Shown here one piece after another: positions 53,425 to 60,810 of a stretch of DNA of 64,000 bases; within the stretch, counting starts at the first letter, position 1, and every line of letters begins with the position of its first letter. The translations under genes and the position numbers were made by a program. The stretch is from positions 25,433 through 89,432 of IMG/VR virus record IMGVR_UViG_3300025009_000068; one strand, written 5' to 3'. The notes under the pieces are model-generated. The model was not told where the DNA came from and did no database searches. It worked only from the letters and a program-made list of their open reading frames with translations. The stretch comes from a virus.

Positions 53425-55701
53425 ATGTCTAAGCTGGCCAGGAAGACGCCATCACCTTGCAACGCATCTCAATCTTCCGCTCCCACCACCATCAACGCCG
53501 TAGAAACCATATCCGGGACCATAAAGGACATGAGCCGCCCCTTCACGGGAGGTTGGAGAATTATCCGGATCAGTGGCATTCCAGAAAAGGCTACCGGTGT
53601 TCTTCCGCTGGACTTCGAGGTCGGGGATTGCGTAACCCTGGAAGGGAAGTACGAAGAGACGGGGTACGGCCGGCAATTCAAATTCTCCAACGCCACCCGC
53701 GAGCTTCCCAGGGATACCATGGGAATCATCCACTACCTCGACCGCCTGCGCTGGGTCGGACCTACTCTTGCGCGTCGTCTCGTGGAGGCCTTCGGCCCAG
53801 CCCTCTTCGAAGTGATTGAGCACTCTCCCGGGAAGCTCTCCGAGGTCAATGGCATCACCCCGGCCCGAGCCCAGGAGATCCACGAGAAATACATCTCCAT
53901 CATGTCGGATCGCACGATTGACGTGTACTTCAGCACCCACGGGATAACGCCCTCCCTTCTGAACCGCCTCATGGACACTTACGGCACCAAGGAGAAAGCC
54001 AAGAAGCAGATCGAGGCCAACGTGTACCTTCTGGCCGACGATGTGTGGGGGATAGGCTTCAAGAAAGCCGACGCCATTGCCGTGTCCACCGGGATAAAAA
54101 AGGAAAGCAGGCGTCGTCTGACGGCCGGAATCAGGTATGTTCTGCAGGAAGCATCCGGTAGAGAAGGGCACACCTGTCTCCCCTTCGAGGAACTGGTCAA
54201 GCGCGCCGTGGAGATCCTCGAGGCCGGGAAGGAGAAGGTTGTTGAGGTGCTAAGCGAGATGATCGCCGCGGGGAAGCTGGTGGATTTTACGCCGGGGAGG
54301 GAAATGATGGGAATGGAGGCGCAGAAAAAGAGCGATGCCTTGAAGGAAGAAGCCCTTCCCTTCGAGGGTGATGCAGGCAAAGTCGATGCAACCACTCCCG
54401 CCCCCGTCACCTACATCTACACGGCAGAAATGTGGACCGCTGAAATCGACGTGGCACAGTCCCTCCTAAAGTTCGTCTCAACCCCCCATGCAGCCATGAT
54501 AAGCGAGCTCTCCTCGGATGAAATCAACTCCCTCGACCAAGACCAGCTTCGAGGCCTGGACCTCGCCATGACGTCAAAAATCATGGTTCTAGCGGGTGGG
54601 CCCGGAGTTGGCAAAACCCACTTGATCAACTTCATCATCCGAGCCATGGGTCGAGATTTGAATATTGCCCTGGCCGCCCCCACGGGAAAGGCGGCCAAAC
54701 GCATGTCCGAGGCAACCGGCGGTCGTGCGGCCATGACCATTCACCGCCTGCTCGCCTTTCATCCCGAGGTGGGATTCCGCCACAACCAGGACAACCCCCT
54801 CGACGTGGACGTGCTCGTGATCGATGAGACCTCCATGGTGGATGTGCAACTCATGGCGAGCCTGTTATCCGCGGTCAACCCGGAGAAGACGCAGCTTATC
54901 CTCGTTGGGGACCCGGCCCAGTTGCCGTCGGTGAGTGCCGGGAGGGTGTTGGGAGACATCATCGAATCGTGGATAATCCCCACAGTGCATCTCACCACCC
55001 TTCATCGCCAGGCCGCGAAGAGTTACATCAACCGGAACGCTCAGCGAATCAATCGCGGCGAGAAGGTTGAGCTCAAAAATGATGGCGACTCGGATTTCTT
55101 CTTTGTGACCGAGGAGGACAAGCACGGCATCGCCCCCATGATAGAGAAGGTGTGCGTGAAATTCTCCGCGCACTATGGGTTTGACCTGAAGGATATCCAG
55201 GTGTTGTGTCCCATGAAGAAGGGGCCGGCCGGGACGATAGAACTGAATAGGCGATTGAGGCCCGTGATCAACGTCGAAGGGGTGGCTATAGGCGGGACGC
55301 CTTTTTTGACAGGGGATAGGGTCATCCAGACGAGGAACGATTACAAGAAGATGGTGTTCAACGGGGACATGGGGATTGTGCTTGGAGGGGATGCGAGTGC
55401 CGTTGTGGTCATGATCGATGATCGGGAAGTCGAGTATGCTTCCAAGGATTTTGAGCAACTACAGATGGCTTATGCGCTTACTGTTCACCGATCACAAGGG
55501 AGTGAATTTCCCGTTGTTGTGATCCCGGTACACACCACAAATTATATTCAACTCCGGAGAAATCTCTTGTATACTGCCATCACTCGTGCTAAAAGGTATG
55601 TTGTCTTGGTAGGCCAACAAAAGGCAATAAACCTTTGCATAAGGACGACAGATGCAAGCAATAGATTTACAAATCTTGCAAGAAGGCTCAGAGGTCAATA
55701 A
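53425..55701 (+). CDS. recD2: RecD2-like SF1B helicase
   Basis: HhH repeats; GGPGVGKT; APTGKAAKR; IDETSMVD; VGDPAQLPSV; AYALTVHRSQGSEF; LYTAITRAK. Confidence 0.92.
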   Translation: MSKLARKTPSPCNASQSSAPTTINAVETISGTIKDMSRPFTGGWRIIRISGIPEKATGVLPLDFEVGDCVTLEGKYEETGYGRQFKFSNATRELPRDTMGIIHYLDRLRWVGPTLARRLVEAFGPALFEVIEHSPGKLSEVNGITPARAQEIHEKYISIMSDRTIDVYFSTHGITPSLLNRLMDTYGTKEKAKKQIEANVYLLADDVWGIGFKKADAIAVSTGIKKESRRRLTAGIRYVLQEASGREGHTCLPFEELVKRAVEILEAGKEKVVEVLSEMIAAGKLVDFTPGREMMGMEAQKKSDALKEEALPFEGDAGKVDATTPAPVTYIYTAEMWTAEIDVAQSLLKFVSTPHAAMISELSSDEINSLDQDQLRGLDLAMTSKIMVLAGGPGVGKTHLINFIIRAMGRDLNIALAAPTGKAAKRMSEATGGRAAMTIHRLLAFHPEVGFRHNQDNPLDVDVLVIDETSMVDVQLMASLLSAVNPEKTQLILVGDPAQLPSVSAGRVLGDIIESWIIPTVHLTTLHRQAAKSYINRNAQRINRGEKVELKNDGDSDFFFVTEEDKHGIAPMIEKVCVKFSAHYGFDLKDIQVLCPMKKGPAGTIELNRRLRPVINVEGVAIGGTPFLTGDRVIQTRNDYKKMVFNGDMGIVLGGDASAVVVMIDDREVEYASKDFEQLQMAYALTVHRSQGSEFPVVVIPVHTTNYIQLRRNLLYTAITRAKRYVVLVGQQKAINLCIRTTDASNRFTNLARRLRGQ

Positions 55702-56413
55702 AGAGACCTGGATTCCAGTGTGGTGGTGCCAGGATTATGATGTATCGAATTTTGGAAGGGTGAGATCGAGAAAAAGGAAATTACCAATAATACTTTCTGC
55801 ATGTCCAAACCAGTGGGGCTATTTGCAAGTTGCCCTGTGTCAGAATGGCAAGGTAAAATGTTGCAGAATTCATGTTTTGGTTTTGGAAGCATTTGTATGC
55901 AAGCGACCCAGTGGCAAAAATGCTAATCATAAAGATGGAAATAAGAATAACAATTTTGATTTTAATCTTGAATGGGTAACTCATCAAGAAAATGTAATCC
56001 ATTCATATAAAACTGAGTTAAAGCATGGTCTGCGTGGAGAGAAAAGCGGAAGGAGTAAACTAAAAGATGGTGAAGTGTGGCTTATTAAGAAGCTATGGCT
56101 TTCTGGAATACCGTCAATACTAATAGGCAAGATGTTCAAAGTAACTCCTCATCATACGGCTAGAATAGGAAGAGATGAGTTGTGGGGAGACATTGACATA
56201 TCTTATGATGAAGTTTCGCCAGTTAAATACAAAACAGATGATTATGGAGAGCGTCACTTCAAGTCCAAATGGAAAGATGGTGAAGTTTGGCTCATAAAGA
56301 AACTGCTTAACGCCAATATTGATAGAAAGATTATACAAAAGATGTTTAATATGAAAAAATCCAATCTTTCTCACATAGCTGTTGGTATGACGTGGCGTCA
56401 TATTGAAGTGTGA
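55652..56413 (+). CDS. NUMOD4-HNH homing endonuclease
   Basis: YDVSNFGRVRS (NUMOD4); ANHKDGNKNNN..NLEWVTHQENVIH; two repeated C-terminal DNA-binding units; AT-rich; start uncertain. Confidence 0.85.
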   Translation: MQAIDLQILQEGSEVNKETWIPVWWCQDYDVSNFGRVRSRKRKLPIILSACPNQWGYLQVALCQNGKVKCCRIHVLVLEAFVCKRPSGKNANHKDGNKNNNFDFNLEWVTHQENVIHSYKTELKHGLRGEKSGRSKLKDGEVWLIKKLWLSGIPSILIGKMFKVTPHHTARIGRDELWGDIDISYDEVSPVKYKTDDYGERHFKSKWKDGEVWLIKKLLNANIDRKIIQKMFNMKKSNLSHIAVGMTWRHIEV

Positions 56414-56459
56414 TGTTGGGCTCGGTGAGTAGACAACCCAGCGATTCGGGAAAGATCCA

Positions 56460-56708
56460 ATGGGCTGGAAGTTTGTGTGCCCCTCCTGTGGCTACGTTGC
56501 CAGCGTTAAGGATTGGAAGGATGCCGGGGCATCAGACCGGGAAGCGGCTTTCTCCTGTGTGGGACGAGCGATGAATTCTGATAAGCAGATTTTCGATAAA
56601 ACGGGCGGGCCATGCAATTACGCCGGCGGGGGGCTCTTTGGGCTCAACCCGGTCACGGTTGATTTTGACGGAAAGGCCATTAAGGTTTTCGCGTTTGCGG
56701 AAGCCTAA
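56460..56708 (+). CDS. Cassette 1 gene: VVA0879-like Zn-binding protein (possibly 5'-truncated)
   Basis: WKFVCPSCG..FSCVGR..CNYAGGGLF; its stop TAA lies inside the R'' box of attC1. Confidence 0.6.
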   Translation: MGWKFVCPSCGYVASVKDWKDAGASDREAAFSCVGRAMNSDKQIFDKTGGPCNYAGGGLFGLNPVTVDFDGKAIKVFAFAEA

Positions 56709-56795
56709 CCCAGTAATGAACCAGACGGGTACCACGCCTTGGTTTTATGCAGTCGGCGGTGCTAGGGTGCCCGCTGGTTATCGCCAAAGTTAGGC
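56703..56795 (+). mobile_element. attC site 1
   Basis: R'' GCCTAAC ... R' GTTAGGC; inner arms ATGAACCAG-A-CGGGTACC / GGTGCCCG-CTGGTT-AT with extrahelical bases. Confidence 0.88.
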
Positions 56796-56813
56796 CGCGC
56801 GAGAGTAAAGTCA

Positions 56814-57665
56814 ATGCCAAGAGCACAGCAAATGTCGGTAGTACCATTGCAAAACGTGGTCGCTGAGTCCGTGGGTTTTATGCAGGCTCATGAACCATCT
56901 GAGGGGTATATGGTTTGCAATAGTTTCGGCAAAGACTCAGTTGTGCTCATGGAGTTGGTGAAAATGGCTGGAGTTAAATGCTTTCCGGTCCACAGCTTCA
57001 CCGGCATTGATCCACCTGAGGCGATCAAGTTCGGGCTCAAGACATACCCTGATACTCGTATTTACCGTCCCGTCATGTCTATGTGGGAAGGCATCAGAGC
57101 TAAGTTTCCTCCCGTTTTTAATAAGCGCTGGTGTTGCGACGTACTAAAGAAAGACCCAACGAAAGCTATCCCCTTGAAACACAAACTGGTTGGCATACGG
57201 GCCGAAGAGTCTCCAGGGAGGAAAGAGCGTGGGAGGATTTCAAGGTTTCGCGGCAAATGGCAGTATTCTCCCATTTTCGAGTGGCACGAATGGCACGTCT
57301 GGGAGTTCATCGAAGGTCTTGGCCTGCCATTTTGCGAACTGTATGACCAGGGCTTTGACCGGATCGGCTGAATGGTGTGCCCTTTAATCGTCTCGGTCGG
57401 GATGGGTAAGGTGAAGCAGCACAGGCAAAGGTGGCCCGGATGTTATCGGGTTTTTGAGCATGCGGTCACATGGTGGTTCTGGAACAAGGCTGGCGAAGAC
57501 AAGACTCGCTGGCCCACACCCAAAGCATACCTGGACGCATGGTACCGTGGATTCAAATCATCTAACAAGCGCATGCAGCCGGACACCGACCACGCGGGGG
57601 CAATTCAGTTGCGTCTCTTCGAGTCCTCGGCCCGCGTGATCGGTGCCGCTGATGCGCAGCGTTAG
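56814..57665 (+). CDS. Cassette 2 gene: PAPS/APS-reductase-family protein, probable selenoprotein (Sec at UGA 57369-57371), 283 aa
   Basis: SFGKDS PP-loop, RWCC..LKK, GIRAEES..R, PIFEW..VW and GFDRIG-[TGA]-MVCP; the next ORF continues in frame; SECIS-like hairpin follows. Confidence 0.8.
57382..57411 (+). promoter_or_regulatory. Bacterial SECIS-like hairpin
   Basis: CUUUAAUCGUCUC-[GGUC]-GGGAUGGGUAAGG; about a 13-bp stem with G-U pairs and one mismatch; loop begins 23 nt after the UGA. Confidence 0.7.
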
Positions 57666-57667
57666 AC
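57560..57667 (+). mobile_element. attC site 2
   Basis: ATCTAAC AAGCGCATGCAGC..CACCGA.CACGCGGG / CCCGCGTG.TCGGTG..GCTGATGCGC..GTTAGAC. Confidence 0.88.
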
Positions 57668-57682
57668 GGCGAGGAGGTGGTG

Positions 57683-57883
57683 ATGGTAACAGTGAGTTTC
57701 CCGGCGGGCGACAGAGGTATCTCGTGCTGCGCCTGCGGCGGAAAGGTTATCGTGACGCGCACCACATTGAGGTGCCGCAAGTGCGGAACAACCGCACCCA
57801 ACGCTTGGGTGCCAAAGGGGTCTAACCCAGCAATGAACCCGACGCCGGCCACGCGCGTGAGTCGTGCTACGGAAACCCGTTAA
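57683..57883 (+). CDS. Cassette 3 gene: small Zn-ribbon protein
   Basis: GGAGGT RBS; CCACGG...CRKCG; reads into attC3. Confidence 0.6.
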   Translation: MVTVSFPAGDRGISCCACGGKVIVTRTTLRCRKCGTTAPNAWVPKGSNPAMNPTPATRVSRATETR

Positions 57884-57912
57884 GGCCGGCGCGGGTTATC
57901 GCCACGTTAGGC
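57820..57912 (+). mobile_element. attC site 3
   Basis: GTCTAAC..ATGAACCCG-A-CGCCGGCC / GGCCGGCG-CGGGTT-AT..GTTAGGC. Confidence 0.9.
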
Positions 57913-57933
57913 CGCGAGGCCCGAGGAGACGGA

Positions 57934-58110
57934 ATGAAAATGAAAGCGTGGGGCTATGCCCATCTCTTGGTCGAGGCGGAATTCGAAGTAGATGAGACTG
58001 GATGCGAGCATACGGAGGCAATGAAAGCTTTGAACGAGGCGGCCAGGAAAGAATACGGCATATATCCGTCGCAATTCGAGTTTTCGGATGGGATTAATAT
58101 CACGGAGTAA
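57934..58110 (+). CDS. Cassette 4 gene: 58-aa acidic hypothetical protein (not in the ORF track)
   Basis: GAGGAG RBS; MKMKAWGYAHLLVEAEFEVDE...DGINITE*; stop is 3 nt before attC4. Confidence 0.65.
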   Translation: MKMKAWGYAHLLVEAEFEVDETGCEHTEAMKALNEAARKEYGIYPSQFEFSDGINITE

Positions 58111-58113
58111 ATG

Positions 58114-58206
58114 GCCTAACCCAGGGCTGGAGCCGAAGCGGGCCACGCGTGGTGCTACGGAAGTCCGTGGTACTACGGCCCGCTCGGCTCAGCCCCAATG
58201 TTATGC
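58114..58206 (+). mobile_element. attC site 4
   Basis: GCCTAAC..GGGCTGGAGCCGA-A-GCGGGCC / GGCCCGC-TCGGCTC-AGCCC..GTTATGC. Confidence 0.9.
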
Positions 58207-58223
58207 GGCGAAAGGGGGAGGTG

Positions 58224-58433
58224 ATGAAGTGTGGAGCTGTCAACGAGACGTTCCCGCACGTGGCCTGTGAGTTGGAGCCAGGGCACTCGGGGAGACACGG
58301 GGCTATTAGGCCCATGCGTGGCGGTGGTGAGGGGGTGTATTTATGGCATAACCCAGGGCTGCAGGCGACGGCGGAGGAAGCCCGAGACGTTGGTTCAGAG
58401 TCCTTGGCCGCCGCGCCTGAGCCCCAATGTTAG
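58224..58433 (+). CDS. Cassette 5 gene: small Cys/His metal-binding protein
   Basis: GGAGGT RBS; C..C.L..GH.G.H motif; reads through attC5 to the TAG in GTTAG. Confidence 0.6.
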   Translation: MKCGAVNETFPHVACELEPGHSGRHGAIRPMRGGGEGVYLWHNPGLQATAEEARDVGSESLAAAPEPQC

Positions 58434-58435
58434 GC
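58346..58435 (+). mobile_element. attC site 5
   Basis: GCATAAC..GGGCTGCAGGCG-A-CGGCGG / CCGCCG-CGCCTG-AGCCC..GTTAGGC. Confidence 0.9.
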
Positions 58436-58458
58436 CACTTGGGACAGGAGCTGGAAGA

Positions 58459-58899: not shown

Positions 58900-58962
58900 G
58901 CCTTGAAGGGAAGGGCTTGCTTTTTTACGCCACCAACGCAAGCCCTCCCATCCCTTCAAGGC
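58900..58962. terminator. Long hairpin between convergent operons
   Basis: GCCTTGAAGGGA..AGGGCTTGC / GCAAGCCCT..TCCCTTCAAGGC. Confidence 0.6.
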
Positions 58963-59433: not shown

Positions 59434-60162
59434 TCAAGGTTTCTTGTATTTCAACAGATCCTGTTTGATGACATAAGCTTTTCCGTGTTGCTCGCATAAG
59501 GCCACGGCATCTTCAAGAAACTTCCCCCAATCAATGGCGGCCGCCCGTTTGTCGTGGTTCCATTTTCCGATTTTGAACGTATCCACGTAGAGCATGGCGG
59601 CCTCCATAATCATCAGCGACTCGCTCGGCACAATGACTGGCTCGATACTGGCCCACGTCCGGATGTTTCTGGATTGAGCTCGGTAAAGCATTTCGATGCG
59701 ATTCATCGGAAGCGCGGCATTGGGCTCCCATTTCAGCGACAAGGCGCTACTGTAAAACGTGAGGGTAGCTCCAATCTGAGAGTTGGATGCCGACAAAAGA
59801 TCAAAATCGCGGCATGCTTCCATTCCTCCCTTGGTCAGAATGTTGACAGAGTTTCCATGGTCTGTGATGATTTTGATTGCGTCCCTTGTCCTCCAGTGCT
59901 CCGTGCCGATACAGTAGGGGTCGCACGAGAAGCACAAGAACACGGGTTCGGAAAGCTGGCCGACTCGCGTCATGTCCCGCTTCAATCGTTCAAGGACATC
60001 GGGGGCCGGGGTCACTTTCGAATGGAACTCTTTCCGACTCACGTAAAATGGAGCGTAGCAGTAGAGACAGCCATGAGTGCAGCCCTTGTAGAGATTAGCT
60101 GCATATCCATGGTCGGCATACTCACCGGCCCGGCCGGATGGCGTGTAAATTAAAGGCCTCAT
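59434..60162 (-). CDS. Radical SAM protein (spore-photoproduct-lyase-like family)
   Basis: NLYKGCTHGCLYCYA CxxxCxxC; DPY, ILTKG and WASIEP motifs. Confidence 0.85.
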   Translation of the reverse strand: MRPLIYTPSGRAGEYADHGYAANLYKGCTHGCLYCYAPFYVSRKEFHSKVTPAPDVLERLKRDMTRVGQLSEPVFLCFSCDPYCIGTEHWRTRDAIKIITDHGNSVNILTKGGMEACRDFDLLSASNSQIGATLTFYSSALSLKWEPNAALPMNRIEMLYRAQSRNIRTWASIEPVIVPSESLMIMEAAMLYVDTFKIGKWNHDKRAAAIDWGKFLEDAVALCEQHGKAYVIKQDLLKYKKP

Positions 60163-60324
60163 GATTTATTTTCCTCCCCTCACCTCCACCCTAATCCTCT
60201 GCAACCATCCACACACTCGAGCGGTCCACTTCCATCGATGCTCATGATGCTTGAAGTCGCTACATGTCCACGCCATTTTGAGGCGATGCTTTTTTGTCGG
60301 CATGATCGTGCCCCCCATTTTCCT

Positions 60325-60810
60325 TCAAGGATATTTCAAAAGCTTGGCGTCTCCCTTAACATACAATGGGTGCCATGGTGCTCCGTCTTTCGTGAGCTTC
60401 AAACATTTGATCTTTCCTTGTTCGCTCTCACGCCTCAATAATTCCATTACTTCCATGTCCCTATGCATATGTCTTCCGTGAGTGCCCCACGCAGCCACAA
60501 TCAACGCAACCTCTCTGGAATAAGCATCAACCCATGTATCATTTTCGGGGCCGACAGGGATGGGATGAGCTAACATGACCTTGGGGTCGGTAGCTCGAAC
60601 CGCAAACAGATTGCACATGACTATTCCGCCATATCCCCAGGATGCGGCAAACCGCATGCATCGCCTTATGGTGGGGTCGTCCTCGGTCTCGGTTGCAGTG
60701 GATGGATTAAGACCGATCCAAAGCATGCCAGGAAGACTGGTATTCCAAACCCTGGAAAGGGAATAGCGATACGTGCGGCATTTCGAGAATATGGCTGATT
60801 TTGTTATCAT
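60325..60810 (-). CDS. DUF1643 family protein
   Basis: CRTYRYSLSRVW..IGLNPSTA..DDPTIRR..NLFA.RATDP..AAWG..PWHPLY. Confidence 0.85.
   Translation of the reverse strand: MITKSAIFSKCRTYRYSLSRVWNTSLPGMLWIGLNPSTATETEDDPTIRRCMRFAASWGYGGIVMCNLFAVRATDPKVMLAHPIPVGPENDTWVDAYSREVALIVAAWGTHGRHMHRDMEVMELLRRESEQGKIKCLKLTKDGAPWHPLYVKGDAKLLKYP

Follow-up and report, generated by a model that had tools for sequence, protein, structure and literature searches.

A probable selenoprotein of the PAPS-reductase-like family in a groundwater phage

We will describe a gene of the IMG/VR virus record IMGVR_UViG_3300025009_000068 (G000 in our collection), which comes from groundwater metagenomes, has 89,432 bp and is rated 100% complete by CheckV. 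We have studied its last 64 kb, which we call the window (64,000 nt); all positions given below refer to it. The gene is found on the + strand at positions 56814–57665, ends with the stop codon TAG (57663–57665) and codes for a protein related to 3'-phosphoadenosine 5'-phosphosulfate (PAPS) reductases (PF01507, phrog_424). Its frame has a single interruption: an open reading frame (ORF) of 185 aa (56814–57371) terminates in a TGA at 57369–57371, and an ORF of 97 aa (57372–57665) continues in the same frame. The junction is GFDRIG-TGA-MVCP. These two abutting frames were pointed out in an initial annotation made by a model from the letters alone, and they are confirmed in the sequence. The TGA takes the place of a cysteine which is nearly invariant in the family, and the same replacement is found in several independent lineages. 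From this comparative evidence we consider that the gene probably codes for a selenoprotein of 283 residues.

In the mechanism which we propose, the UGA would be decoded as selenocysteine (Sec) by SelB and Sec-tRNA(Sec) of the host, so as to give one PAPS-reductase-like enzyme of 283 residues. Decoding would be guided by a stem-loop which starts 7 nt behind the codon and has its apical loop GGUC at 23 nt from the UGA. Selenocysteine would replace the first cysteine of GCxxCP, with the junction peptide DRIG-U-MVCPLIVSVGMGK. By homology to assimilatory adenosine 5'-phosphosulfate (APS) reductase, U186 would be one of the four ligands of a [4Fe-4S] cluster, together with C107, C108 and C189.

The main evidence is comparative. 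Among 5.8 billion proteins searched we found 184 homologues with 42–58% identity, nearly all of them full-length (240–300 aa). In an alignment of 25 homologues the N-terminus MPRAQQM is also found in homologues, and the column of the TGA is that of Cys186, a near-invariant residue in G-F-x-R-x-G-C-x-x-C-P; the initial annotation had placed the TGA there on the basis of the motif G(Y/F)xRxGCxxCP. It had also named Cys/TGA pairs in homologues as a means of checking its proposal, and such pairs are present: four further divergent lineages, all verified on DNA, have a TGA in the same column. The first is a 36-kb viral contig, L001 (= L012, L092, L096), whose sister L002 has TGT. The second is an 85-kb viral contig, L016 (= L091, L095). 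The third, L093 and L094, consists of metagenome contigs with a very divergent homologue, which were retrieved with a DNA pattern specifying the motif in its TGA form. L116 is a provirus, the fifth lineage when the window is counted, and was retrieved with a looser pattern; it is the sole new true carrier given by the relaxed DNA patterns, the remaining matches being due to chance. Apart from the TGA carriers, all the loci among 80 viral loci have TGY (Y is C or T) at this codon. The proposed Sec/Cys pairing at one column is thus represented by five DNA-verified TGA lineages and 73 TGY loci. Three proteins end exactly before the TGA column: P0068 (184 aa), P0112 (187 aa) and P0392, the last one added by a homologue search at the level of representatives. 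Their stop codon is presumably also TGA.

The carriers do not group together in a maximum-likelihood tree built from 99 homologues; they are dispersed over it and have Cys-type neighbours in each case. Five changes are needed for the five DNA-verified carriers and six for all seven TGA-type rows; at least four of these are forced by well-supported branches. The second cysteine of the motif behaves differently: Cys189 (TGC, 57378–57380, + strand) is retained in 5/5 TGA carriers, and a motif pattern with TGA at this second cysteine has no match in the viral collection. Other searches added no carriers. The 97-aa C-terminal part used as a query recovered only itself, the motif-with-TGA pattern and a single-protein scan over genome contigs gave 0 matches each, and isolated phages have distant homologues only, at most 31% identical. 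The domain is enlarged in its middle in two carriers, L001/L092 by about 45 aa and L016/L091 by about 23 aa; other homologues do not have these extra segments.

A TGA within a frame might be a nonsense mutation or an assembly error, either in a dying pseudogene or in a gene in which only the N-terminal 185 residues are functional. A single base change leads from TGY to TGA, the carriers are rare and the window gene is found in a cassette-like accessory region, all of which would agree with this explanation. Nevertheless, five independent lineages have the TGA in the same codon with no further defect: in all carriers with DNA the frame is open from the normal N-terminus of the family to the TGA and then for 62–97 codons to its normal C-terminus, and no other in-frame stop or defect is found in any DNA-verified carrier. 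When carriers are compared with their nearest relatives, the proportion of nonsynonymous differences (pN) is 0.19–0.44 after the TGA, much like the 0.21–0.33 found before it, and synonymous sites are saturated (proportion of synonymous differences, pS, 0.7–0.97). We conclude that the region beyond the TGA is translated and under constraint. The TGA is also present in Logan contigs of two groundwater samples, with a depth of about 12; the stretch is identical in both, with no variant. These two samples may be the source samples of the record, the evidence consists of contigs and not of raw reads, and runs X5 and X7 do not span the TGA; the support from reads which the initial annotation had called for is thus found at the level of contigs. 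Furthermore a related phage (G002, discussed below) has a second, different allele with TGA. We consider both a pseudogene and an assembly error very improbable.

Another explanation is a split gene, in which the ribosome would terminate at the TGA and begin anew at the ATG next to it, or GTG in two carriers. The resulting polypeptides of 185 aa and 97 aa would then combine to form an enzyme which has three cysteine ligands. The start codons are indeed in place in three lineages, since an ATG adjoins the TGA in the window and a GTG does so in L001 and L016, and gene callers enter the two halves as separate proteins. In the other two lineages re-initiation cannot explain the data, because in L093 the TGA is followed by ATA and the first 29 codons contain no ATG, GTG or TTG, and in L116 the first start codon, an ATG, falls beyond the conserved Cys189. 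GTG is the usual valine codon at that column in Cys homologues, and no clear Shine-Dalgarno sequence is found ahead of the window ATG. A break which has fallen five times exactly on a cysteine codon would also be left without explanation. We therefore regard a split gene as quite improbable.

The TGA codon has its normal use in the rest of this genome. Long ORFs terminate more often in TGA (76 of 144) than in either of the other stops, and it is also the stop codon of the HNH, DUF1643, radical-SAM-like and phrog_23101 genes, which are matched to their families; none of 12 other genes checked in this genome has an internal TGA. Since TGA serves as an ordinary stop elsewhere in the genome, a genome-wide recoding (genetic codes 4 or 25) was rejected. 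A genome-wide list of open frames joined by TGA was too noisy to reveal a second candidate.

We will now consider the RNA. In bacteria the selenocysteine insertion sequence (SECIS) is found within the coding region. The published bacterial model (bSECIS) has a loop of 3–9 nt, a stem of 4–16 bp and a G in the first two loop positions, usually as G[G/U] (PMC13188914). It also has a spacing of 16–37 nt from the UGA and a minimum free energy (MFE) of at most -7.5 (PMC13188914). The window has a SECIS-like stem-loop at 57376–57418 (+ strand), with an energy of -12.5 kcal/mol. Its upper stem has 7 bp, three of them G-U (57388–57394 with 57399–57405), and encloses the loop GGUC (57395–57398); the lower stem is interrupted. 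The spacing between the UGA and the loop is 23 nt, so that the hairpin which the initial annotation described is present at 57388–57405 and satisfies the bSECIS model. The same routine, applied as a control to E. coli K-12, recovers the fdhF element with loop GGUC, spacing 18 and -14.2; the likeness to the fdhF loop noted in that annotation is correct.

The hairpins of the other carriers are found in the same place but have unrelated sequences. L016 has a stem of 8 bp, loop GUC and a spacing of 19 nt; L093 has 7 bp, GUCC and 19 nt; L116 has 8 bp, GGU and 18 nt; L001 has 7 bp, CGGGA and 25 nt. Taking our criteria in advance from the published consensus, we tested the 5 carriers and 73 Cys homologues. 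The test is passed by 4/5 carriers, the window among them, and by 14/73 Cys homologues (Fisher p 0.009); when the G[G/U] loop pattern is added, the numbers are 4/5 and 8/73 (p 0.0016). Overall folding energy was rejected as a discriminator: shuffled sequences and synonymous recodings do not separate the carriers, and many Cys homologues outrank them by MFE. The RNA evidence is consistent and moderately specific, but it is not strong alone; it is the comparative evidence which carries the case. In L002, the Cys-type sister of L001, the corresponding place (3556 onward) is also occupied by a stable hairpin; its loop, UUCCU, has no G. This hairpin may be the remnant of a SECIS or a forerunner of one.

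The hairpins also bear on the possibility that the UGA is decoded, but not as selenocysteine. A near-cognate tryptophan or cysteine tRNA might read it, or a dedicated UGA-to-Cys system, and the product would be a full-length enzyme with Cys or Trp, made at a lower or regulated level. For some anaerobes there has been a proposal of such a UGA-to-Cys system, which uses a tRNA(Cys) resembling tRNA(Sec). The constraint on the downstream part and the cysteine found at this position in the relatives would both be accounted for in this way; besides, the hairpins are thermodynamically unexceptional. Simple leakiness, on the other hand, gives no reason for the repeated fixation of TGA at this cysteine and never at the second cysteine of the motif, nor for hairpins with G[G/U] loops at 18–23 nt in 4/5 carriers. 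Tryptophan at the position of a cluster ligand would probably be harmful. Decoding as another residue is unlikely, and selenocysteine is the reading we prefer. An enzyme of 283 residues with selenocysteine, as the initial annotation proposed, is supported by the recurrent Cys/TGA pairs, the constrained downstream frame, the hairpins which fit the SECIS model and the absence of genome-wide TGA recoding.

The product has the features of its family along its whole length. PF01507 (PAPS_reduct) matches the first part alone with E 1e-21 and the read-through product with E 2e-24. The latter match has 87 bits against a cut-off of 22.5, places residues 33–190 on profile positions 3–173 of 175 and extends across the TGA junction; phrog_424 matches with E 2e-29. 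The putative nucleotide-binding loop S37-F-G-K-D-S42 (56922–56939, + strand) is a variant of the PP-loop SGGKDS, which is present in most homologues; S37, G39, K40, D41 and S42 are near-invariant in the alignment. The C-terminal part (57372–57662, + strand) is conserved and confidently folded in residues 187–250. Residues 251–283 are not conserved and are disordered in the AlphaFold (AF2) model, which is confident elsewhere (predicted local distance difference test, pLDDT, 84.5; predicted template modelling score, pTM, 0.79). The nearest solved folds are PAPS/APS reductases, followed by the PAPS domains of FAD synthetases and by the [4Fe-4S] tRNA thiolase TtuA.

The proposed selenocysteine would replace a ligand of an iron-sulfur cluster, because the TGA codon aligns with the first cysteine of the CxxC of P. 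aeruginosa APS reductase (2GOY). In the family profile WCC corresponds to ECC of this enzyme and GCxxC to IGCEPC. Both cysteines of the invariant W106-C107-C108 (57129–57137, + strand) fall on its tandem CC, so that the alignment reproduces the CC...CxxC arrangement. The four cysteines are invariant or near-invariant in the homologues; the third one is TGA in the window. The four cysteines of CC...CxxC bind the [4Fe-4S] cluster in the P. aeruginosa enzyme, as reportedly described by Chartron et al. in 2006. Homology supports the assignment of the proposed Sec186 to one of the four [4Fe-4S] ligands (C107, C108, U186, C189), as had been suggested from the motif.

The family is different from the true sulfate-assimilation enzymes. 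An identity as CysH or APS reductase was rejected: with the models NF002537, TIGR00434, TIGR02055 and TIGR02057, in this order, the scores in bits are 50.9 against a cut-off of 154, 43.3 against 165, 36.3 against 235 and 27.1 against 254. The C-terminal catalytic cysteine (ECGLH-type motif) is absent: the translation has none after residue 190 and neither have the homologues, since the family ends in ...AWYRGF. The neighbours in the window phage are a RecD2-like helicase and an HNH endonuclease; in L116 they are a replication protein and a C5 cytosine methylase. A role on nucleotides or nucleic acids rather than in sulfate assimilation is suggested by the lack of a C-terminal catalytic cysteine and by this context of replication and modification genes. 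The prediction which we consider most likely is an Fe-S enzyme which adenylates its substrate and takes part in the metabolism of nucleotides or nucleic acids. A relationship with DndC and a role in DNA or nucleotide modification had been proposed at the outset. No DndC model is found among the NCBIfam matches at E up to 0.01, and in PADLOC only the BrxP PAPS-reductase domain matched (E 2e-15). The replication and modification genes nearby agree with the proposed role, which is still a guess. Just downstream, on the opposite strand (59434–60810), there are a radical-SAM-like gene, whose Pfam match is weak and does not reach the gathering score, and a DUF1643 gene.

The record which holds L016, called G002, is a close relative of the window phage: the RecD2-like helicase is 83% identical and TerL 82–88%. 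Its PAPS-reductase-like gene also has the TGA, but it is only 47% identical to the window gene and is found on the other strand, at a different site. This gene (L091, 502–1380) is inserted, within a segment of about 870 bp, between the positions which correspond to 62902 and 62965 of the window, a site which is empty in the window phage; attC-like flanks were not found around it. Conversely, G002 lacks the window region 55561–58349, with the HNH endonuclease and the first four cassettes of an array described below; it has retained one attC-like element and the last cassette. The absence of this region in G002 indicates that the cassette array is variable between near relatives. To judge from these alignments, the two related phages have acquired two different alleles at two sites, both with TGA. 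This is what would be expected if the TGA form were favoured in a shared kind of host.

A weak hint of what this host may be is given by relatives in metagenome-assembled genomes. For TerL they are Desulfobacterium, Desulfobacteraceae and Desulfobacterales (45–48% identity); for the PAPS-reductase-like enzyme they are Desulfovibrio and 'Deltaproteobacteria' (47–51% identity). They point towards Desulfobacterota, although they do not amount to an assignment. The Thermodesulfobacteriota (formerly Deltaproteobacteria), which we take as the same lineage, are among the groups richest in selenoproteins (2026 review, PMC13188914). We found no tRNA-Sec, SelA or SelD in the four virus records which are carriers, and no SelB in the window phage. 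These absences fit the dependence on SelA, SelB, SelC and SelD of the host which the initial annotation assumed.

Several points weigh against a selenoprotein. The phage does not have its own Sec machinery and would depend on the selABCD genes of its host. Most selenoproteins use Sec as a redox-active residue; the position of a cluster ligand is less usual. Few carriers were found, namely 4 viral records for more than 279 homologous loci. The TGA is backed by assemblies and not by raw reads, and the ATG which directly follows it in the window makes a stop and restart possible for this one lineage. The hairpins add further doubts. L001 narrowly fails the bSECIS model, with -7.3 for an energy limit of -7.5 and a loop CGGGA without GU, and 19% of the Cys homologues fit the same loose model. 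The hairpins are not more stable than dinucleotide shuffles (z -0.54 for the window, and +0.56, -1.26 and +0.40) nor than synonymous recodings (p 0.18 for the window, and 0.73, 0.098 and 0.88), while Rfam gave no SECIS or other credible match. As the hairpin evidence is modest, we do not go beyond calling the selenoprotein probable.

A wider interpretation may be put forward as tentative. Phages of selenium-using anaerobes might carry selenoenzymes in which Sec is a ligand of the [4Fe-4S] cluster of a PP-loop/PAPS-reductase-like enzyme acting on nucleotides or nucleic acids. The Sec state would track the host and not the gene tree, and two close phages would have gained their two TGA alleles at two sites, one of them as an integron-type cassette. 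If this were the case, the codon would mark the host range and restrict it to bacteria which decode Sec.

The proposed mechanism is that commonly used by bacteria, and the novelty resides in the carrier, the family and the site of the residue. As in E. coli fdhF (codon 140) and other genes with a SECIS within the ORF which is read by SelB, the window has an in-frame UGA at a cysteine of the homologues, followed by a 3' stem-loop with a small loop led by G at 16–37 nt. The loop GGUC is identical in the window and fdhF, although the spacing is 23 nt in the former and 18 nt in the latter. Unlike bacterial selenoprotein genes of the fdhF type, the window gene is carried by a phage without its own Sec machinery.

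The window protein shares its fold with the assimilatory APS reductase 2GOY and the PAPS reductase CysH (1SUR, 6VPU), with Foldseek E 4e-9 to 3e-7 and TM 0.47–0.65, and the CC...CxxC of 2GOY is aligned with the family column for column. It differs from these enzymes by the absence of the C-terminal ECGLH-type cysteine, which is replaced by a conserved helical part RWP...AWYRGF, by a loop which resembles a PP-loop (SFGKDS or SGGKDS) and by scores far under the CysH/APS-reductase cut-offs. The domain family and the mobile-element context are common with PAPS-reductase-domain proteins of phages and defence islands, which are the phrog_424, BrxP (BREX type 4) and DndC proteins; BrxP is much longer, about 780 profile positions compared with 283 residues. 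We know of no member of this group which carries Sec.

Predicted Fe-S-binding cellular selenoproteins with UxxC are on record (2026 review, PMC13188914). As in the window, their UxxC is found at a predicted metal-cluster ligand, but they have an unrelated fold, belong to an unrelated family and are encoded by cellular, not viral, genes. In viruses of eukaryotes, selenoproteins are known: the glutathione peroxidases of molluscum contagiosum and fowlpox viruses. There the virus also relies on the Sec-insertion machinery of the host, as would be the case in the window, but the SECIS is eukaryotic and is found in the 3'-UTR (untranslated region), the family is unrelated and the role is redox. A literature search gave no report of a selenoprotein in a virus of bacteria, nor of a PAPS-reductase selenoprotein. 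A word search of the 2026 review, which covers 119 prokaryotic selenoprotein families/subfamilies, found no mention of PAPS reductase, PF01507, phage or virus (PMC13188914).

Four host genes are required for the decoding of Sec, besides a local RNA signal. If the gene is a true selenoprotein gene, its expression in the phage is tied to a trait which is found in only some bacteria, and viruses should be added to the vehicles which spread selenoprotein genes. The prokaryotic selenoproteome would gain a new family (PF01507). There would also be a natural Cys/Sec pair at an Fe-S ligand, a rare chance to probe the effect of selenium on cluster chemistry. At present such genes are split in two in viromes, or labelled as truncated 'cysH' auxiliary metabolic genes.

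The surroundings of the window gene have a structure of their own. Downstream of the RecD2-like helicase gene, positions 56703–58436 form an integron-type cassette array of short ORFs. It has five attC-like elements of 86–111 nt, long imperfect hairpins with bottom-strand z values from -1.3 to -6.0. They open with RYYYAAC and mostly close with GTTRRRY, as judged without a dedicated attC model. The TGA gene is found between the first two. The first element (56703–56798, GCCTAAC ... GTTAGGC; bottom strand -18.4 kcal/mol, z -1.3) ends 16 nt upstream of the start codon. The second one (57557–57667, ATCTAAC ... GTTAGAC; bottom strand -36.8 kcal/mol, z -6.0) runs over the 3' end of the gene, including its stop codon, and encodes the disordered, non-conserved tail of the protein, residues 251–283. 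The other three are found downstream, at 57820–57905, 58114–58207 and 58344–58436. An integron integrase was not found in the 89-kb genome (no TIGR02249 match). The initial annotation had the gene travel on a mobile cassette. This holds for the window copy, which is flanked by attC-like hairpins; it has to be limited to this copy because the other carriers do not have such flanks. Two more elements are found close to the array. An HNH/NUMOD4 homing-endonuclease gene (55652–56413), absent from G002, has a 50-nt overlap with the 3' end of the RecD2-like helicase gene. At 58900–58962 there is a 23-nt inverted repeat with the palindrome CCTT(G/C)AAGG at both ends.

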